Source of the DNA: a virus
IMG/VR virus record: IMGVR_UViG_3300009537_000050
Coordinates: 1-42,175 of that record
Strand: one strand, 5' to 3'
Length of the DNA stretch: 42,175 nt
The notes beneath the pieces are model-generated. The model saw only the letters and a program-made list of their open reading frames with translations, was not told the origin of the DNA and ran no database searches. Positions 30,206-38,156 of the stretch are shown here, piece by piece (position 1 is the stretch's first letter; each line of letters begins with the position of its first letter). Position numbers and translations under genes: made by a program.

Positions 30206-30885
30206 ACAAAATCTCAGCGTGGAGCTACTCTCGATTGACGACGTATGAGAAGTGTGCCTTCCGTGCGTTCTGCCTGTACGTTCTCAAGAAAAAAGAACCT
30301 CAGGCACCTGCGATGAAGCGCGGTAGTGATATCCACGAGCTAGCTGAGAACTATGTCAAAGCGTCTCGTGTACCGAGAAAAATTCCAGAAGCGTTGTGGC
30401 GCTTTGAGGATGAGTTCAAAGAACTTCGAAAGGCCTACCACCGAAGAAAAGGCAAGAACCACTTTGTAGAACTTGAGGCGCAGATTGCGGTCGACGACAA
30501 GTGGGGCTGCGTTGATTGGTTCGACGACTTCGCGTGGCTGCGCGCGAAGATTGACGTGCTTGAGGTGAACGGGGTATTTGCTGAAGTCAAAGACCACAAA
30601 ACAGGAAGGCAGCGTCCTGAGAACGTCGACCAGTTAGAGTTGTACGCTATTGCCATATTCTGCAAATACCCGTTTGTGGAAACCGTCAACGCAAGCTTCT
30701 GGTATTTGGACGAGGGTGTGATTGACGCGAAGAACTTTGCGCGTCATGAACTAGACAGTCTCAAAAAGAAATGGCTGAAGCGAATCAAACCCATGATGAA
30801 CGACACGACGTTCAAGCCTAAGCCATGTTACCTATGCAAGTGGTGTAAGTTCTCGAAGGAGGAAGGCGGACCGTGCAAATTTTAG
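30187..30885 (+). CDS. PD-(D/E)XK Cas4/RecB-like exonuclease with a Cys cluster
   Basis: N-terminal Cys (YEKCAFRAF), IDVLEV...EVKDHKTG (D..E.K), QLELYA, and C-terminal CYLCKWCKF...GGPC. Confidence 0.8.
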   Translation: MPVRRLNKISAWSYSRLTTYEKCAFRAFCLYVLKKKEPQAPAMKRGSDIHELAENYVKASRVPRKIPEALWRFEDEFKELRKAYHRRKGKNHFVELEAQIAVDDKWGCVDWFDDFAWLRAKIDVLEVNGVFAEVKDHKTGRQRPENVDQLELYAIAIFCKYPFVETVNASFWYLDEGVIDAKNFARHELDSLKKKWLKRIKPMMNDTTFKPKPCYLCKWCKFSKEEGGPCKF

Positions 30886-31178
30886 AATCAACGATTGAGC
30901 GAAAGTTCGTTGACCGCGTGAGGGAGGAGTTCAATATTGAGACACTAAAACTTGAACTTAGACACAACGCCGGCTGGCCTGACAGGTTGCTCCTCATCCC
31001 CGGAGGTCGTCCGCTATTCATAGAGTTCAAGAGACCTGGAGAGGACCTTGGAACACTGCAACGATATCGTCATGACGTACTTAGAGAGCTTGGGTATGAG
31101 GTTCGAACATTCGACCGTGTATCCTCAGCTATGCTCTACGTCAGACAAATCATGGCAACCGCACGCGTACCAACGTAA
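30873..31178 (+). CDS. VRR-NUC domain nuclease (101 aa)
   Basis: ERKFVDRV...GWPDRLLLIPGGRPLFIEFKRPGE...Q matches the VRR-NUC core (D..E.K). GTG start with GGAGGAAGG upstream. Confidence 0.75.
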   Translation: MQILESTIERKFVDRVREEFNIETLKLELRHNAGWPDRLLLIPGGRPLFIEFKRPGEDLGTLQRYRHDVLRELGYEVRTFDRVSSAMLYVRQIMATARVPT

Positions 31179-32547
31179 AGCGGTCACGTGGCTCGTTAAG
31201 AGAGCTGAAGCGGCGCTCTTCCTCGACCCTGGTCTTGGCAAGACTGCTGCTACACTACGTGCGTTCCTCGCCCTAAAGAAAGCGGGCGTCGCAGGGAAGA
31301 TGTTGGTCATCGCGCCGAAGCGTCCGTGCTATTTGGTATGGAGTCATCGCGGTGAGATAGGCAAATGGAAAGACTTCAGACATCTTACCGTATCGTTACT
31401 CCATGGTCCGAATAAAGAAGGCGCGCTGGAAGAGGATGCTGATATCTATGTCATCAACCATGATGGGCTTCGGTGGCTTTGTGAACCTAAGCGTGTTCGG
31501 AAGCTCATCAAACGCGGCGTTAAGCTTGTTGTCATCGATGAGCTTTCGAAGTTCAAACATCCGCGGACGATGAGATTCAAAGCGTTCAAGAAGTGGCTTG
31601 GGTGTTTCCCACGCCGGTGGGGCTTAACAGGTTCTCCAGCGTCTAATGGACTGATTGATTTATTCGGGCAGGTGTACGTCCTGGATAAAGGTCGTCGACT
31701 CGGCCAATATATTACCCACTATAGGTATCAGTATTTCTATCCAACTGGTTTCGGTGGGTATCAGTATGCGCTGCAGGACGGGGCAGAGAAACGGATTTAC
31801 AAGAAGCTCAAAGACCTAGCCTTGTCAATGAAAGCTGAAGACCACCTAGACCTTCCCCAGCTAGTAGAACGAGACATCTACGTCACGTTGCCCAGTAAAG
31901 CTGGAACGCTGTACCGTCAGATTGAGGAGGACTTCTTCGCACTCTATGATAAGGATGTGGTAGTTGCAGCCAATGCAGCAGTTGCTAGCGGTAAATGTAG
32001 GCAGGTTGCATCTGGTGGAATATACGTTGAACGCAGTAACAAGAAACGCGTTACACGATTTATCCACAATGAAAAGACAGAGGCTCTTGTCGACCTCGTT
32101 GATGAACTTCAAGGCGCGCCGTTACTGGTCGGATATGAATTCCAACACGACCTTGAAAGAATCCGCGAGGCGTTGGGTAAGAATACACCGGCAATCAGTG
32201 GGAGTATGGGAGACCGTGAACTAATACGCGTTGTCGACAAATGGAATGACGGGAAGATTCCCGTACTATGCGCCCATCCAGCCGCGGCCGGACATGGATT
32301 GAATCTTCAAGGTTCATCATGTAGCCACGTCTGCTGGTACTCGCCCACGTGGGACTTCGAACTATACGACCAATTTATCCGACGCGTGTGGAGACAGGGG
32401 ACGAAAGCCTCTAGGACAATAGTCCATCGAATCATCGCGCACAACACTCTTGATGAAGTCGTCATCAAAGCGTTACGCTCTAAGCAACGACGGCAGGACG
32501 CGCTCATGTCGGCGCTTAAAAAATATCGTAGTTCAAGGGTTCTCTAA
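31048..32547 (+). CDS. SNF2-family helicase/translocase
   Basis: Motifs: PHAYQ, LDPGLGKT (I), VIDELSKF (II), GHGLNLQ (V), Q..RR.WRQG (VI). The start is uncertain: TTG 31048, ATG 31072 or ATG 31096. Every option overlaps the VRR-NUC gene. Confidence 0.85.
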   Translation: MEHCNDIVMTYLESLGMRFEHSTVYPQLCSTSDKSWQPHAYQRKAVTWLVKRAEAALFLDPGLGKTAATLRAFLALKKAGVAGKMLVIAPKRPCYLVWSHRGEIGKWKDFRHLTVSLLHGPNKEGALEEDADIYVINHDGLRWLCEPKRVRKLIKRGVKLVVIDELSKFKHPRTMRFKAFKKWLGCFPRRWGLTGSPASNGLIDLFGQVYVLDKGRRLGQYITHYRYQYFYPTGFGGYQYALQDGAEKRIYKKLKDLALSMKAEDHLDLPQLVERDIYVTLPSKAGTLYRQIEEDFFALYDKDVVVAANAAVASGKCRQVASGGIYVERSNKKRVTRFIHNEKTEALVDLVDELQGAPLLVGYEFQHDLERIREALGKNTPAISGSMGDRELIRVVDKWNDGKIPVLCAHPAAAGHGLNLQGSSCSHVCWYSPTWDFELYDQFIRRVWRQGTKASRTIVHRIIAHNTLDEVVIKALRSKQRRQDALMSALKKYRSSRVL

Positions 32548-32599
32548 GGTCAGTTCATTTGCTATCCGGAGGGTATCTCTAACAGCTGAGGAGTTAGCT

Positions 32600-33385
32600 A
32601 TGGCAAAGAAGACTATGCGCAAGAAGGTGTCGAAGAAGGTGTCGAAGAAGGTGTCGAAGAAGGTGTCGAAGAAACGTGTTGCTGTGAAGAAACAACCTGA
32701 ACCGGTTATTCGTAGCCAAAAGGTTGTGAAGAAAAGGAGTGGTCTACCGGCGACAGTTACGAAGACCTTCACCCACCACGTCGATGTACCGAAGCCAACA
32801 GAAGCTCAGGCAGAAGCCCGCAAAAAGGCGTTCGTTGCAATAGACCACGAACAACGCACGTGTATTGCTTTTCACAGAACGGCCGGACAAGTAACGTTCA
32901 CGTGCCATTCAGAGAATGGTTTCACACTTGAGACCTGGCCGTCGAAAGATTTTGATGAGGTTTACAAAAAGGTTGAGGATTACCCCGTCGGCAGAGCTGC
33001 TGTCCTCTACGTGGAATTCGCCACTGTGATGGGCGCTGACGACGAGGTGATGGATAAGTTGACCACGTTGGTCAACGTTTCAAAGAAGGAGTTGGAGATG
33101 ACGAAGAAGAAGCCAGTGAAGAAGAGTGCTGCAAAGGGTCAGTCTCGTACGGCCCGTGTGAAGGGCGCGAAGGAAGCAAAGAAGGCTTCTGCCCCACGCC
33201 AGGCGAAAGACTCTGCGTCCAGTATGTTTCGCGAACTCATCATGCAGGGCAAGCTCACGGACGACCAGATTTTTGAGCGCGTCCAGAAGAAGTACGGGCT
33301 GGACGAAAAGAAGCGTAGCTACGTCTCCTGGTACCGCAATCAACTCACAAAGATGGGGAAGAACCCACCGAAGGCGAAGAAGTAG
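32600..33385 (+). CDS. Lys-rich histone-like protein, paralogue of 25756..26079 at the C-terminus (261 aa from the ATG)
   Basis: The ATG at 32600 has GAGGAG upstream. The N-terminal (KKVS)x4 is encoded by a 12-bp tandem repeat. The C-terminal SSMFRELIMQGKLTDDQIF...SWYRNQL aligns with SSVARELIRQGQTNAQIW...SWYRSKM. Confidence 0.7.
   Translation: MAKKTMRKKVSKKVSKKVSKKVSKKRVAVKKQPEPVIRSQKVVKKRSGLPATVTKTFTHHVDVPKPTEAQAEARKKAFVAIDHEQRTCIAFHRTAGQVTFTCHSENGFTLETWPSKDFDEVYKKVEDYPVGRAAVLYVEFATVMGADDEVMDKLTTLVNVSKKELEMTKKKPVKKSAAKGQSRTARVKGAKEAKKASAPRQAKDSASSMFRELIMQGKLTDDQIFERVQKKYGLDEKKRSYVSWYRNQLTKMGKNPPKAKK
32621..32668 (+). repeat. Perfect 4 x 12-bp in-frame tandem repeat (AAGAAGGTGTCG)
   Basis: Read directly from the sequence. 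It encodes KKVSKKVSKKVSKKVS. Confidence 0.9.
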
Positions 33386-33460: not shown

Positions 33461-34345
33461 ATGAACAAAGCTGGAAAGTCCGTCGACACGACCCACCTAC
33501 CACTGGCAAAGCATACGTCCATCCGTGGTTACATCCACAGAGACTACCTCGCCCATTGTCTTCGCTATTCGCATGTAGCGAAGTTCATGAATCAACAACG
33601 TAGGTACCAACATTCACACCTACTCGACGTAGGTTGTGGAAGAGAGACTCCACTTGCTCGTCTCATGTATTCAATGAGGATGACGCATAAGACGGGAACC
33701 TATACGGGTGTGGATTATGGAAAAGTGGACTGGCCAGACTCGATGCCAGATAAGCCGAAGAACTTTAATATGAAGCTCATTGAGCGGACGGACTTCGTGG
33801 AGGCGAAACTGCCGCGAAAGAAGTTTAACGTTGGAGTCTGCTTCGAAGTCGTTGAACACGTCGAACCGTTCCACGCATATCAGATTCTCAAACGCCTACG
33901 CCAGTCACTGAGAAGTACAGGAACGGCGTTCATCTCCACGCCCGTATACGACCCTCGCGTCGGAGCTGCTGGGAACCACGTCAATGAGATGTCGTTCGAA
34001 GCGATGTATGCGATGCTCATCTTGGCGGGCTTTGCGGTCGTCGGTAAGTGGGGAACGTTCGCCTCACAGAGGGATTACAAAGATGAACTCAGTAGCTTTA
34101 CAGGTGTGCGTGGAGTCTTTGATGCGTTGAGCGCATACTACGATTCGAACACGCTTGCCTGTATCTTCGCCCCGCTGTTCCCTCAACAGTCACGTAATGT
34201 TCTGTGGCGCGTAAAGGCGATAGGCGATTGTGGAGATGTATTCCACGGTGAGGCTATTAGGAACCTTCGGCGGAAGGTTCATTCCAGTTCCACAAAGTGG
34301 ACCAAAGAATTCTCAAAAATCATTCGCGACGTTTCGTGTTCCTAA
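33461..34345 (+). CDS. Class I SAM-dependent methyltransferase, substrate unknown (294 aa)
   Basis: Motif I LLDVGCGRETP, post-I acidic YTGVDYG, and VCFEVVEHV. No DPPY or PC motif typical of DNA base MTases. Confidence 0.7.
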   Translation: MNKAGKSVDTTHLPLAKHTSIRGYIHRDYLAHCLRYSHVAKFMNQQRRYQHSHLLDVGCGRETPLARLMYSMRMTHKTGTYTGVDYGKVDWPDSMPDKPKNFNMKLIERTDFVEAKLPRKKFNVGVCFEVVEHVEPFHAYQILKRLRQSLRSTGTAFISTPVYDPRVGAAGNHVNEMSFEAMYAMLILAGFAVVGKWGTFASQRDYKDELSSFTGVRGVFDALSAYYDSNTLACIFAPLFPQQSRNVLWRVKAIGDCGDVFHGEAIRNLRRKVHSSSTKWTKEFSKIIRDVSCS

Positions 34346-34357
34346 AGGAGGACCAAC

Positions 34358-35422
34358 ATGTACGCTGTAGCTGGTGACGTATTCGCAGGACTTTTCGCCT
34401 ACGGAATCCGACGTGCTGGATTCAGAGTCGATACACATCTTGCCCATACGGATTATGGGATTGAGATGTACAAGGCTAACTTCAAATCCCACGACGTTCG
34501 GATTGGAAAGGAGAACTGGGACCTGTCAAAGCTTCGACGCAAGGAGCGTCCACATTTGTTCTTTACTAACCCACCATGTGCTCCGTGGTCGAACGCCGGT
34601 CACGGGTCGCGCTTCCGAAAAGGCGAGGCGAAGGACGATAGGCCTGAGTGGATTATCGACCTCATGAATGCTGCGTTTGAAATGCGTGCTGATACGTGGG
34701 TCTGGGAAAGCGTTACCGAGGCGTGGCGTCGTGGACAGGACTTCGTTCTTTCGCGCGCCGAGGAGTGTCTCAGTCACGGGTATAGCGTCACAGTTCTTCT
34801 CCAGAACAACCTCTACCTCGGCGCTCCGCAAAACCGTCGACGTATGTTGTTCATCGCCCACAGATATCCAATCGTATTCCCGCGGTTCAAGCTAAAGCAT
34901 CCAACGGTGCGCGAAGTTCTCAAGGGCGTAAGTCCAGGAAGCACTGTAGGGTGCGACATCTCTCCAAAAGAATGGTCTCTTTACTCAGCGGTAGGCAAAG
35001 AAGGCGGTCCGCTATCCGCTCATTACTCCAACAAGATGACGGACAAAGAACGTAAGCGGATTGATATTACACCTGGAATGAAACCGTCATTCTTGGCACG
35101 CCGTCTGGCTAACGATAAGACGTGCCCTGTGTTTATCAAGAATACGTTTACCTATCACCCAACGCTTCCACGGTATACGACGTGGAACGAAGGTCTTGCA
35201 CTTGCTGGCGCTCCGAAAACATGGAAGCGTACAGCGTCCAACCTCGTTGACAATACCCATCTCCTCGGCCGCGGAGTCCTTCCTGCCGTCGGCAAGTGGA
35301 TTGGGACGGCTGTCGCGACGGGTATCAAGACAGGTTCGCGGATACCAAAACGCGAACGATGCGTCATGCTCTGTGACTTCAGAAAGATGTCGAACATCAT
35401 CGAGGAAAGGATTGACCTATGA
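34358..35422 (+). CDS. DNA cytosine-C5-methyltransferase-like enzyme with a degenerate SAM loop (354 aa)
   Basis: Motif IV FTNPPCAPWSNAG, motif VI WESV (ENV-like), motif VIII QNRRRMLF, motif X GRGVLPAVGKWIG. Motif I reads DVFAGLFAYG in place of FxGxGG. AAGGAGG RBS. Confidence 0.7.
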   Translation: MYAVAGDVFAGLFAYGIRRAGFRVDTHLAHTDYGIEMYKANFKSHDVRIGKENWDLSKLRRKERPHLFFTNPPCAPWSNAGHGSRFRKGEAKDDRPEWIIDLMNAAFEMRADTWVWESVTEAWRRGQDFVLSRAEECLSHGYSVTVLLQNNLYLGAPQNRRRMLFIAHRYPIVFPRFKLKHPTVREVLKGVSPGSTVGCDISPKEWSLYSAVGKEGGPLSAHYSNKMTDKERKRIDITPGMKPSFLARRLANDKTCPVFIKNTFTYHPTLPRYTTWNEGLALAGAPKTWKRTASNLVDNTHLLGRGVLPAVGKWIGTAVATGIKTGSRIPKRERCVMLCDFRKMSNIIEERIDL

Positions 35423-35820
35423 GTTACCAAGACAAAGAGTGTCGAGACCTCCGTGCGTTCAACGCGCGTTTCGGCGTTGAGACGAGTAGGAAACCAACGT
35501 TACTTGTCGATGAGCGAAACAAGGAGAGAATGTATCTCATTGATGAGGAAGCGGATGAGTTGTTCAAGGCGTTTCAACAACGCGACGTTGTTGAAATCGC
35601 GGATGCCCTCATCGACCTCGCATACGTCATCAAAGGAACCGCTGTTATGATGGGTCTTCCGTGGGAAGAGTTGTGGACAGAGGTTCATCAAACAAATATG
35701 GCGAAGGTCCGAAAGACAACGGACCGCGCGAAGATTGATGTTCAGAAACCAGAAGGTTGGAAACCACCGGACGTCAGTGGAATTTTGAAGTCCGCGGGGT
35801 GGGAGGAAGACAATGGGTGA
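35419..35820 (+). CDS. MazG-like all-alpha nucleoside triphosphate pyrophosphohydrolase (133 aa)
   Basis: Metal-binding pattern IDEEADEL ... EIADALIDLAYV. ATGA coupling to the upstream gene. Confidence 0.7.
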   Translation: MSYQDKECRDLRAFNARFGVETSRKPTLLVDERNKERMYLIDEEADELFKAFQQRDVVEIADALIDLAYVIKGTAVMMGLPWEELWTEVHQTNMAKVRKTTDRAKIDVQKPEGWKPPDVSGILKSAGWEEDNG

Positions 35821-36784
35821 GTTCTGCAAAACGGTCACTATCTTTGAAGGTCCTGACGGAAGCGGTAAGACGACAGCAGCTGCGTACTACGCCGACGTTA
35901 TAGGCGCACGCTACGTTCATCTAGGTCCGTTTACCGGCGTCAACCGATGTCTTGCCCGTCTCTACATCGAGGCTATGCTTCCAGCGTTGTACGGGTATCA
36001 GGACGTGGTACTCGACCGTTCATGGTTGAGTGAGGGAATCTACGGAGCCGTGTATCGTGACGGCGCGGATAGGATTCGTGCGTGGCGTCGACGAATGTTG
36101 GAACGTGTAGCGATGAAGTGTGAAGCTCAGGTTGTCCTCTGCCTTCCCGGAATCAATAGATGCGTTTCAAACTTCAACGCGCGTAGAAACCTTGGTGGAG
36201 AATACCTGGATACTGAAGACCACCTTCGGGCTGTTTATCTTGGATACGAGGAGGCGCACGAATCAGGAGAATTTACTGACCTCCAAACGCACCTTTACGA
36301 TTACGAAACGAACTCAGAAACAGACCTCAAGGAGTTGCGCGGCACTCATCCTACGCACCCAGTGCGCGACGTTACGGGAGGAAACCTTGATGCTCCGTTC
36401 GTTATCGTTGGAGATAGCGTTGAAGCTACGCGAGAGCATGACTCACTGTTCAAAGCGCCGTTCGTATCTTTCGGCGGAAAGTGTAGCGCCGCTTGGATTA
36501 CCTCTCGCCTGCAAGCTGCGAAAATCAAGGAGCACGAACTTCTGTGGATTTCCACAGAGAACAACTGCCTCGAACACGTGGAAGAACTTTTGGATACAGC
36601 TCCGCGTGAACACGTCTTCGCACTTGGGCGGGACGCAGCGTTGCTGTTAGCTGATACTGAGTACCCTTTCATGATGGTTAACCACCCTCAACACGCCCGT
36701 AAATTCGGGATGAACAAGGGTTACAAACTCATCAAAGCAATTTTGAAAGTGCGTACGTTGAAAGCGCTAGGGGGTAATAGGTAA
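35813..36784 (+). CDS. Fusion of a thymidylate-kinase-like dNMP kinase with a UDG-fold domain (323 aa)
   Basis: N-terminal domain: IFEGPDGSGKTT P-loop and LDRSWLS (DR motif). C-terminal domain: APFVIVGDSVEATREHDSLFKAPFVSFGG and VNHPQHARKF are laid out like UDG family 4 motifs A (GEAPG...PFVG.AG) and B (HPS...), but with the catalytic motif altered. Confidence 0.6.
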   Translation: MGEFCKTVTIFEGPDGSGKTTAAAYYADVIGARYVHLGPFTGVNRCLARLYIEAMLPALYGYQDVVLDRSWLSEGIYGAVYRDGADRIRAWRRRMLERVAMKCEAQVVLCLPGINRCVSNFNARRNLGGEYLDTEDHLRAVYLGYEEAHESGEFTDLQTHLYDYETNSETDLKELRGTHPTHPVRDVTGGNLDAPFVIVGDSVEATREHDSLFKAPFVSFGGKCSAAWITSRLQAAKIKEHELLWISTENNCLEHVEELLDTAPREHVFALGRDAALLLADTEYPFMMVNHPQHARKFGMNKGYKLIKAILKVRTLKALGGNR

Positions 36785-37605
36785 TGAGAGCCCTGGTTGG
36801 AGACGAGGCCTGGAGAAACCAACTTGCACGTATCATAGAACATGGTCGCGAGACCTCTCCGCGCAGTCAGGATACGTTGGAGATTCTTCAAGATACGAAT
36901 ATCCACATCGATATGAATAGTCCGGTTGTAACGACACCGGATAGGAAACTCAACTATCGATTCATGTGCGCTGAAGCTCTGTGGATTTTGGGAGGAGATA
37001 ACAGACTGGAACCGTTGACACGTTTCATCAAACGGATGGCGAAGTTCTCTGACGACGGCGAGACGCTCGCGGGAGCGTACGGTCCGAAGATAATTCCACA
37101 ACTCAACTACGTCGTCAGTAAACTTTTAGAAGATAAGGACACGCGTCAAGCAGTCTTGACAATTTGGGAGAGAAACCCGCAACCGTCGAAAGACATTCCA
37201 TGTACTGTCTCGATGTCCTTCACGATACGTAATGGGCTCCTCAACCAACACGTCTATATGAGGTCCTCAGATACGTGGCTTGGAATTCCTTACGACATGT
37301 TTTCATTCGCCTGCGTAGGTTTACGCGTAGCGTGCGAATACAATGAACGTCGAATCTATGTCCAGGGTTATAGGCATGGAACGGTGCTTCCAGGAACGTT
37401 GACGATTTCTCCAACGTCTTCGCACCTCTATATGAAGGACTGGCAGAAAGCAAAAGACATTCTGTTCAAGCCCGTCCCGCAGGATATCGAACCCGTGCCA
37501 AACGAGATTATCAAGTATGGGCGGTTCGATTACATCCAACGGTCACTCCTAGCTGTACGCGAAGGGCAAAGACTTTCGCCAGACATGTGGAGGTGCGTAC
37601 CATGA
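36784..37605 (+). CDS. Thymidylate-synthase-family pyrimidine-C5 enzyme with Asp at the Asn177-equivalent position (dCMP hydroxymethylase/methylase candidate)
   Basis: CAEALWILGG (Glu58 region), IPCT (catalytic Cys), and YMRSSDTWLGIPYDMFSF aligned to ThyA YQRSCDVFLGLPFNIASY. Confidence 0.75.
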   Translation: MRALVGDEAWRNQLARIIEHGRETSPRSQDTLEILQDTNIHIDMNSPVVTTPDRKLNYRFMCAEALWILGGDNRLEPLTRFIKRMAKFSDDGETLAGAYGPKIIPQLNYVVSKLLEDKDTRQAVLTIWERNPQPSKDIPCTVSMSFTIRNGLLNQHVYMRSSDTWLGIPYDMFSFACVGLRVACEYNERRIYVQGYRHGTVLPGTLTISPTSSHLYMKDWQKAKDILFKPVPQDIEPVPNEIIKYGRFDYIQRSLLAVREGQRLSPDMWRCVP

Positions 37606-38156
37606 GAATGACGCGCGAAGAGTGGGCGCTCCGTATCGCTGAGGTTGTGGCGATGCGTGCTACGTGTGTGCGTCGACGGGTCGGTTGTGTTCTAACAGAC
37701 AAACATGGTCGAATCCTAGCGACGGGGTACAACGGGGTTGCCACAGGACTTCCACACTGCACTGAAGGACATCCCTGCAAAGGAGCTAACGCGAAGACGG
37801 GGGAGGACCTCGACAACTGTGAGGCTATCCATGCAGAACAGAACGCGCTGCTCCAATGTCAGGATACTCAGAGGATTCACACGTGTTACGTTACGGTATC
37901 TCCATGCATTACGTGTACCAAGCTATTGCTCAACACGTCATGTAGGCGTATCGTATTCATTGAGATGTACGGCGGAGAACCGTGTCCAAGGGAGCTTTGG
38001 AAAAGAAGCGACGACCGGAGACTTTGGTTCTCTGAGCGTTTGAGGACGGAGGTGCAACATGTTAAACAGGGCGGAGAAAGACCGCCCGCACCTTCCGACC
38101 ACGACGACAATCCTGAGATTCCAGATTACGGAAACCTCACGTACTGGCGTTGCTAA
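37602..38156 (+). CDS. dCMP deaminase (184 aa from the coupled ATG)
   Basis: HAEQNAL and PCITCTKLL zinc motifs in a ComEB/dCMP-deaminase layout. The ATG at 37602 overlaps the upstream stop (ATGA) and has GGAGGT 7 nt upstream. Confidence 0.85.
   Translation: MRMTREEWALRIAEVVAMRATCVRRRVGCVLTDKHGRILATGYNGVATGLPHCTEGHPCKGANAKTGEDLDNCEAIHAEQNALLQCQDTQRIHTCYVTVSPCITCTKLLLNTSCRRIVFIEMYGGEPCPRELWKRSDDRRLWFSERLRTEVQHVKQGGERPPAPSDHDDNPEIPDYGNLTYWRC

Follow-up and report, generated by a model that had tools for sequence, protein, structure and literature searches.

A predicted phage nucleotide kinase fused to a uracil-DNA glycosylase-like domain in a probable cytosine-replacement module

What does a phage protein do that carries a nucleotide kinase and a uracil-DNA glycosylase (UDG)-like domain on one chain? 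The question is raised by an open reading frame (ORF) at positions 35813-36784 (+) of a viral DNA of 42,175 nucleotides (IMG/VR record IMGVR_UViG_3300009537_000050, positions 1 to 42,175; 51.6% G+C), which is the whole contig on record for the fusion protein and is referred to below as the window. The fusion probably helps the phage to replace cytosine in its DNA. With modest confidence, it is regarded here as an enzyme with two domains that belongs to a phage module for cytosine replacement, in which the kinase would act on 5-hydroxymethyl-dCMP (5-hm-dCMP) and the UDG-like domain would serve as a recognition module. The ORF was read from the 42-kb window as a genuine gene with the following features (dNMP, deoxynucleoside monophosphate; Tth, T. 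thermophilus):

35802-35806, + strand: GGAGG ribosome-binding site, 6 nt 5' of the ATG of the fusion gene, read from the sequence
35813-36784, + strand: kinase-UDG fusion gene, 323 aa
35813-36328, + strand: N-terminal dNMP-kinase domain of the YorR/thymidylate-kinase type, residues 1-172
35846-35875, + strand: P-loop EGPDGSGKTT, residues 12-21
36014-36019, + strand: DR motif of NMP kinases, D68-R69, both residues invariant
36338-36766, + strand: C-terminal UDG-fold domain, residues 176-318, devoid of an Fe-S cluster and of two family-4 loops
36407-36424, + strand: motif-A equivalent VGDSVE, residues 199-204 (fusion family VGExF(A/G), family 4 GE(A/G)PG)
36458-36472, + strand: PFVSF loop, residues 216-220, with F217 equivalent to the uracil-stacking Phe54 of Tth UDG; also part of the inter-domain interface
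36545-36559, + strand: WISTE (fusion family WVNAD), residues 245-249, with S247 at the place of the base-recognising Asn80 of Tth UDG
36683-36706, + strand: motif-B equivalent HPQHARKF, residues 291-298, with H291-P292 equivalent to H155-P156 and the basic residue at His+6 to R161 of Tth UDG

The fusion gene starts within the last codons of the upstream MazG gene (TGA 35818-35820), and its TAA overlaps the ATG of the downstream thymidylate synthase (TS) homologue, codon overlaps on both flanks being a layout typical of translationally coupled genes. The motifs quoted in a preliminary description of this DNA were all found in place, i.e. EGPDGSGKTT at residues 12-21, D68-R69, VIVGDSVEATRE at residues 197-208, PFVSFGG at residues 216-222 and VNHPQHARKF at residues 289-298.

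AlphaFold2 models were obtained for the full-length protein (mean predicted local distance difference test score (pLDDT) 94.4, predicted template modelling score (pTM) 0.93) and for the C-terminal domain alone (pLDDT 86.6). The domain-alone model was compared with the PDB using Foldseek, and ranks 1-37 were all occupied by members of the UDG superfamily, with 1ui0 of T. thermophilus as the best match (E = 1.1e-5, TM-score ~0.6) and T. maritima 1l9g, UdgX, S. tokodaii 4zbx and BdiUNG among the further structures. The first non-UDG fold followed at E = 0.04, and the family-5 structure 2d3y was placed at rank 39 (E = 0.058). A profile of 44 C-terminal domains was aligned by hhalign with four family-4/UdgX sequences at a probability of 96% (E = 4.5e-9, 107 columns), motif A, the PF loop, the Asn and motif B all lying in the register of family 4. 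The Pfam UDG model PF03167 was matched by 8 of 44 family members (best E = 1.8e-4). Bacillus phage G gp315 was aligned to both domains of the fusion (E = 1.6e-9, 260 columns), and its C-terminal half matched the NCBIfam family-4 UDG models at ~1e-9. Four independent lines, drawn from sequence and model, indicate that residues 176-318 derive from the UDG superfamily, with family 4 as the nearest family and with similarity well above chance. The alpha/beta fold with a four-stranded parallel beta-sheet that characterises the superfamily was recovered for the C-terminal domain by both Foldseek and hhalign.

Profiles and structure prediction were required for this assignment: no match came from a word-index homology search in which the C-terminal domain was the sole query, or from a single-sequence phmmer search of the PDB with the whole protein. 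A hmmsearch of the PDB with the C-domain profile gave marginal UDG matches (E ~0.8), in the correct register and not significant alone. UDG-fold similarity was detected in structure searches as well as in profile searches, as had been proposed for checking in the preliminary description, and the UDG-fold domain with a family 4/5 order of motifs described there was borne out by the Foldseek ranks 1-37 and the hhalign E-value.

Residues of the fusion family were equated by hhalign with those of T. thermophilus UDG as follows: G200-(E/D)201 with G40-E41, P216-F217 with P53-F54 (including the stacking Phe), N247 with N80, H291-P292 with H155-P156, and R297 with R161, which we take to be a DNA-intercalating wedge in family 4. 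The consensus of the C-domain family reads VGExF(A/G)...D...QWPFxSF...LLWVNAD...HPQxxKRF. Among 60 aligned members, position 201 was E in 40, D in 12, Q in 4 and another residue in 4; F217 was found in all 60, N at position 247 in 57, the motif-B His in 59 and R297 in 55. D210, E240 and W245 are invariant residues specific to this family, D249 is mostly conserved, and an extra 'SFxxGCS' insert is present. Within the family, the window protein is atypical: E is replaced by D at position 201, N by S at 247 and K-R by R-K at 296-297. The catalytic motif, which had been called rewritten, is altered relative to family 4, but part of this rewriting is peculiar to the window protein (D201, S247, R296-K297).

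Family-4 UDGs are marked by motif A GE(A/G)PG, a motif B of the HPAAVL/HPS type and a 4Fe-4S cluster with four conserved Cys as ligands (PMC4787834). In the fusion family, G and an acid are all that is kept of this motif A, and the acid is itself substituted in 8 of the 60 members; motif B reads HPQxxKRF in the window and the main subgroup and PPPLYHMQ in a second group, subgroup B. The N-terminal CxxC segment and the loop with the later cysteines (C85, C100) are gone, leaving C225 as the sole conserved Cys; with the CxxC segment and the 'KCRPP...C' loop missing, a four-Cys Fe-S site is impossible in the C-terminal domain. The deletions relative to family 4 comprise ~14 residues after the Asn strand (the 'KCRPP...C' loop) and ~16 residues before motif B (the 'ITKVRGKWYEW' hairpin), both segments being presumably DNA-contacting loops in family 4. 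The median isoelectric point (pI) of the C-terminal domain was 6.2, a value that is not decisive as a proxy for DNA binding.

Subgroup B comprises 29 IMG/VR loci (within L054-L087, e.g. L062:3986-4930) in which the kinase-UDG and TS genes are the only ones of the module. Here motif A reads LCDKGP, the motif-B His is replaced by Pro (LPPPLYHMQ) and the Arg at the wedge position by Gln, with P216-F217, N247, E240, W245 and G272 retained. The pocket residues F217, N247, E240 and W245 thus persist at ~30% sequence identity, subgroup B included. Family-wide conservation, as read from the alignments, marks a pyrimidine pocket and a kinase interface and not a glycosylase catalytic set. A pyrimidine base/nucleotide recognition module attached to the kinase is therefore the most likely role of the C-terminal domain; it is less likely a uracil repair glycosylase, since neither the motif-B His nor the wedge Arg is present in one subgroup. 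The earlier suggestion of a base-binding module rather than a uracil glycosylase agrees with the loss of the Fe-S Cys and of two loops, the variable motif-A acid and the substitutions in subgroup B.

How the two domains are joined was addressed by mean-field direct coupling analysis (DCA) on an alignment of 224 full-length sequences with an effective number (Meff) of 209. The two top couplings of the whole protein were inter-domain (V99-A215 and V99-V218), M95-V218 was also among the strongest, and the coupled patch links kinase helices 45-54 and 89-101 with loop 203-220 and helix 225-235 of the UDG-like domain. As a check of the method, the top intra-domain pairs (V197-L244, F196-F269) fit the predicted strand pairing. 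The pocket loop (residues 205-225) was modelled less confidently with the domain alone than in the full-length model. The two domains are predicted on this basis to behave as one unit, with the UDG-like domain packed rigidly on two kinase helices.

The same architecture is widespread. A word-index search gave 311 homologues, nearly all of 295-345 aa, and an exhaustive search with the C-domain profile gave 1496 representative clusters, 698 of them at E <=1e-10, in which proteins of about 300-330 aa carry the C-terminal domain at approximately residues 175-315. Short matches (115-260 aa) were considered as free-standing UDG-like proteins and rejected, their sequences beginning within the kinase domain as truncated fragments; one short match, the 146-aa P0141, was not clearly such a fragment. 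Across the sequences collected, the UDG-like domain appears to follow a kinase on the same chain in essentially every case. Of the isolated phages, Stenotrophomonas phage AXL3 (gp29) and Pseudoxanthomonas phage PW916 encode the fusion, their proteins sharing 39% identity with that of the window across 95% of its length, and Bacillus phage G encodes a distant version (gp315, L008:3450-4445).

The N-terminal half was assigned by several searches. PHROG 761 'thymidylate kinase' matched residues 10-170 of the fusion protein (5e-14), a profile of 60 family members matched YorR of the SPbeta prophage (2axp/3kb2; 1.2e-7, residues 7-169), and Foldseek matches of the full-length model comprised YorR, deoxyadenosine kinase and many thymidylate kinases. 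E12, G13, D15, G18, K19, D68, R69, R82, R87 and R98 were invariant in the 60 members, and D68-R69 was also kept in 75 of 75 IMG/VR members. A Walker A motif followed by a DR motif in a thymidylate-kinase-like fold, as in dNMP kinases of the thymidylate-kinase type, is hence present, and the dNMP-kinase assignment with P-loop and DR motif made in the preliminary description holds. The dTMP-kinase models stayed below their cut-offs (PF02223, 15.3 bits against 27; TIGR00041, 17.9 against 83.25) and covered the P-loop only. By sequence, the N-terminal domain is classed as a dNMP-kinase-type P-loop kinase and not as an equivalog of Tmk.

A scan of all window ORFs of at least 80 aa over the whole 42 kb showed that the fusion kinase has the sole Walker A motif of the form [AG]xxxxGK[ST]. 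With one canonical Walker A in the window, there is no other phage kinase to carry the product of the adjacent dCMP hydroxymethylase onward.

It is the surroundings of the gene that point to a substrate. The gene order in the window is class-I S-adenosylmethionine (SAM) methyltransferase, C5 DNA methyltransferase-like gene, MazG/PRA-PH, kinase-UDG, TS homologue and dCMP-deaminase family, the genes flanking the fusion being:

33461-34345, + strand: class-I SAM methyltransferase (Pfam Methyltransf_23, 2e-9)
34358-35422, + strand: C5 cytosine DNA methyltransferase-like gene (Pfam DNA_methylase, 4.6e-16)
35419-35820, + strand: MazG/PRA-PH nucleotide pyrophosphohydrolase, candidate dCTPase (Pfam PRA-PH, 1.4e-15; PHROG 671)
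36784-37605, + strand: TS homologue with a dCMP-hydroxymethylase signature (best PDB match MilA, 8.5e-20)
37587-38156, + strand: dCMP/dCTP deaminase-family gene (Pfam dCMP_cyt_deam_1, 3.7e-19)

Neighbours were counted at 80 IMG/VR loci of the fusion. The TS homologue is immediately downstream in 79 of these, the exception ending at a contig edge; MazG is upstream in 49, the deaminase gene downstream in 46, and a SAM methyltransferase (41) or a C5 methyltransferase (7) occurs at fewer loci. The same core cluster was found in AXL3 and in metagenomic contigs L003-L006, and counterparts of the SAM methyltransferase are L003:6681-7499, L006:2034-2807 and AXL3 gp31 (Methyltransf_23/11/25). The SAM methyltransferase of the module could further modify the 5-hydroxymethylcytosine (5hmC) nucleotide or DNA.

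The best match of the window TS homologue was MilA, a CMP 5-hydroxymethylase (8.5e-20); ThyA followed at a distance (1e-12 or weaker). According to published residue rules, N177D marks dCMP preference, L143D/E the T4-like hydroxymethylases and also MilA, and D169N the 5-hydroxy-dCMP synthases (PMC13326640). The window TS homologue has Asp at both ThyA L143 (KDIPC) and N177 and keeps D169 (motifs KDIPC, RSSD and PYD), i.e. the residues of a T4-type 5-hm-dCMP module, and the Asp/Asp/Asp pattern of T4 gp42 recurs in 75 of the 79 neighbouring TS genes. A 5-hydroxy-dCMP synthase (D169N) was rejected as the identity of this neighbour, D169 being kept. With a neighbouring TS homologue of cytosine and hydroxymethylase signature, the expected kinase substrate is 5-hm-dCMP rather than dTMP. 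This hydroxymethylase-type context is the decisive point that the first interpretation of the locus did not have.

AXL3 gives this prediction a counterpart in an isolated phage, its gp28 (L001:6941-7750) likewise carrying the T4 gp42/MilA-type dCMP-hydroxymethylase signature. AXL3 DNA resists 35 of 37 restriction enzymes, including enzymes that tolerate some modification, and is cut solely by AATT and TTAA cutters; the resistance was left unexplained by the authors, who read the cluster as a dTMP pathway (PMC7504290). The TS signature predicts 5hmC-type DNA, which would explain the resistance of AXL3 to every enzyme with G/C in its site. In phage G, gp315 is clustered with gp313, gp317 and gp319, the cluster comprising a hydroxymethylase-type TS, a dCMP deaminase and an alpha-glucosyltransferase, which suggests glucosyl-5hmC DNA. 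Neighbourhoods of deaminase, TS(N177D) and PRA-PH are enriched in metavirome contigs with modified cytosine (bioRxiv 10.1101/2024.12.05.627091); the kinase-UDG gene, having no Pfam match in its C-terminal half, would not show in such domain plots.

Some further observations concern the neighbouring genes. The C5 methyltransferase-like gene looks redundant in a module predicted to swap C for 5hmC at the nucleotide level. The first 19 nt of the deaminase-family gene lie within the TS gene, and relatives of such cluster deaminases can be selective for modified dCTP (preprint). Upstream of the module, ORF 32450-33385 (+) encodes a Lys-rich protein of 311 aa with no family match, whose C-terminal ~150-190 aa have counterparts (35-38% identity) in proteins encoded at the corresponding place in L003 and L006 and which possibly binds DNA as part of the replication module. 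ORF 30873-31178 (+), between the exonuclease and helicase genes, gave a weak VRR-NUC match (Pfam E = 3.8e-4, under the cut-off).

Fold homologies, domain architecture, gene context and residue signatures were directly shown; from these it is inferred which substrates are used, in which direction the flux runs and what the C-terminal domain does. In the favoured explanation, MazG would convert dCTP to dCMP, the downstream TS homologue would convert dCMP to 5-hm-dCMP, the N-terminal kinase domain would phosphorylate 5-hm-dCMP to the diphosphate, and host NDP kinase would supply the triphosphate for incorporation. Given the gene context from which its substrate is read, the N-terminal domain is most likely the 5-hm-dCMP kinase of the cytosine-replacement pathway. 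The kinase step is also favoured by a free-standing orthologue that adjoins a TS of this type in a Pelagibacter phage, and by YorR-like kinases that accompany dCMP-modifying TS homologues in DLP3 and RB69. The UDG-like domain would have descended from family 4 with loss of the Fe-S cluster and two loops, its pocket being formed by the stacking Phe, the Asn and the acidic motif A, and it may act in substrate selection, in hand-over from the hydroxymethylase or in tethering.

Several points weigh against this explanation. In the main subgroup, the motif-B His (59 of 60) and the Arg at the R161 position (55 of 60) are still present, which is consistent with retained DNA base flipping or catalysis, and phage PolA-UDG fusions do excise dU (bioRxiv 10.1101/2025.03.26.645540). 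Pelagibacter phage HTVC200P gp013 is a kinase-only orthologue of 157 aa (E = 1.3e-16) beside the same type of TS, and the existence of such orthologues makes the C-terminal domain dispensable for kinase function as such. The inter-domain couplings, at an Meff of only ~209, could be inflated by phylogeny. The hydroxymethylase call is made from diagnostic residues, and one of the 79 neighbouring TS genes is Leu/Asp/Asp, with the methylase-type Leu at L143. An Xp12-type 5-methyl-dCMP pathway was weighed as well; this Leu occurs in just 1 of the 79 loci, and in a tblastn search of all phage records Xp12 and PaMx74 were not among the fusion homologues.

DNA-directed activity in the main subgroup is a serious rival to the recognition module. 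An active DNA glycosylase that couples nucleotide supply to DNA surveillance is judged unlikely. Such an enzyme would act on U/5hmU arising from the flux through deaminase and dCTPase, or on DNA with unmodified bases. It would draw on the residues that the main subgroup retains (the motif-A acid, E/D in 52 of 60, with F217, N247, H291-P292 and Arg at His+6), on D210 and E240 as additional invariant acids, and on the dU excision by UDG-like domains of phage DNA polymerases just cited. It is harder to reconcile with the missing Fe-S ligands, the deleted 'KCRPP...' and 'ITKVRGKWYEW' segments, a median C-domain pI of 6.2, a motif-A acid substituted in 8 of 60 members and the Ser at the pocket-Asn position of the window protein; subgroup B, moreover, retains the domain although Pro and Gln stand where the motif-B His and the Arg would be, and the motif-A/PF-loop region co-varies with the kinase surface in the DCA. 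A retuning of the UDG fold for flipped-out C/5hmC by way of D210, E240 and D249 has a small probability in our estimate; it would give either a glycosylase on unmodified-C DNA or a 5hmC-DNA kinase, in the latter case with hypermodification perhaps completed by the SAM methyltransferase.

An ordinary dTMP kinase with a structural or oligomerisation appendage is likewise held improbable. The database name 'thymidylate kinase' (AXL3, phage G) and the thymidylate-kinase-type fold found by Foldseek speak for it, and a fixed inter-domain interface also fits a purely structural role; the Pfam and NCBIfam dTMP-kinase models, however, match the P-loop only and far under their cut-offs, the obligate partner has the signature of a cytosine-specific hydroxymethylase-type TS and not of a dTMP synthase, and the conservation of F217, N247, E240 and W245 at ~30% identity goes beyond the needs of a scaffold. 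The preliminary description had instead speculated that the kinase might work on modified bases in DNA, by analogy with the 5-hmdU DNA kinases. On such a reading, the UDG-like domain would flip 5hmC/5hmU, and the kinase would phosphorylate the hydroxymethyl group and so start hypermodification. A base-flipping fold that the model joins rigidly to the kinase, phage DNA that probably contains 5hmC, a conserved SAM methyltransferase in the module and the resistance of AXL3 DNA even to modification-tolerant enzymes (PMC7504290) would suit this proposal. It fared poorly in the searches, and we consider it very improbable. By hhalign, the likeness to M6 gp54, a 5-hydroxymethyluracil DNA kinase (5-HMUDK), extends over 27 P-loop columns (probability 82%), the SP10 5-HMUDK ranks 45th in BFVD behind many dTMP kinases, and tblastn of the fusion against all phage records gave no match in M6, ViI or SP10. 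The DR motif and the invariant Arg residues of NMP kinases are retained, kinase-only orthologues pair with the same TS type, and the sole Walker A of the window leaves no other phage kinase for 5-hm-dCMP. No aGPT-Pplase/AADT-like gene was seen among 25 scanned window proteins or in the Pfam-annotated loci L003-L006.

A two-domain enzyme with a predicted 5-hm-dCMP kinase and a recognition module has consequences beyond this window. The fusion is frequent in cytosine-replacement modules yet unrecognised by current annotation, and domain-based neighbourhood surveys miss it; phage cytosine-replacement pathways are being mined for restriction evasion and for enzymes of use in biotechnology. A specific explanation of the restriction resistance of AXL3 is offered, namely 5hmC-type DNA and not a dTMP pathway. 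Besides the polymerase fusions, a second route would be given by which phages recruited the UDG fold, here without Fe-S cluster and in one subgroup without the catalytic His. If the domain confers 5-hm-dCMP specificity or binds 5hmC, it might become a reagent for the synthesis or detection of modified nucleotides.

Compared with known systems, the C-terminal domain has the same alpha/beta fold as the family-4 UDGs (1UI0, 1L9G, 4ZBX) and UdgX (6AIL), with motifs in register. It differs from family-4 UDGs in lacking the Fe-S Cys, in two deletions, in its motif A VGExF(A/G), in its own D210/E240/W245, in the SFxxGCS insert and in being fused to a kinase. UdgX is a family-4 relative able to bind DNA without turnover (PMC4787834). 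With YorR (2AXP/3KB2) and the dNMP kinases of the thymidylate-kinase type, the fusion shares the P-loop fold and the EGxDGxGK(T/S) and DR motifs, and it differs from YorR-type kinases by an extra UDG-like domain of 150 residues and by matching the dTMP-kinase model in the P-loop only. The YorR-like kinases DLP3_078 of phage DLP3 and RB69p045 of RB69 adjoin dCMP-modifying TS homologues, as the fusion does (PMC13326640).

T4 gp1 may be seen as a functional analogue at the same position of the pathway; it is a single-domain protein, and no sequence relationship to the fusion was detected. This T4 dNMP kinase phosphorylates 5-hm-dCMP made by a TS homologue. The 5-HMUDKs (M6 gp54, ViI gp67, SP10) are P-loop DNA kinases in phage DNA-modification clusters with aGPT-Pplase/AADT (PMC8989533), from which the fusion is set apart by a kinase that aligns over 27 P-loop residues only and by a neighbourhood in which no aGPT-Pplase/AADT gene was seen. 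Phage family-A DNA polymerases with an N-terminal UDG-like domain (SPO1, SP15-like phiLo, YerA41; PDB 9QHS) are likewise UDG fusions of phages with modified pyrimidines; the partner is a polymerase there and a kinase here, and those domains excise dU, whereas catalysis is doubtful in the present family.

Literature searches returned no description of a kinase-UDG fusion or of its tie to dCMP hydroxymethylases. The closest relatives are AXL3 gp29, its PW916 counterpart and phage G gp315, which have the same two-domain architecture and neighbourhood and are annotated as 'thymidylate kinase' or not at all; gp29 is treated as a plain dTMP kinase of a dTMP pathway in the AXL3 paper (PMC7504290), and phage G gp315 has a longer, more canonical family-4-like C-terminal domain than the other fusions. 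Both superfamilies and the type of pathway are known, and what is new is the fusion architecture together with an Fe-S-less UDG subfamily.

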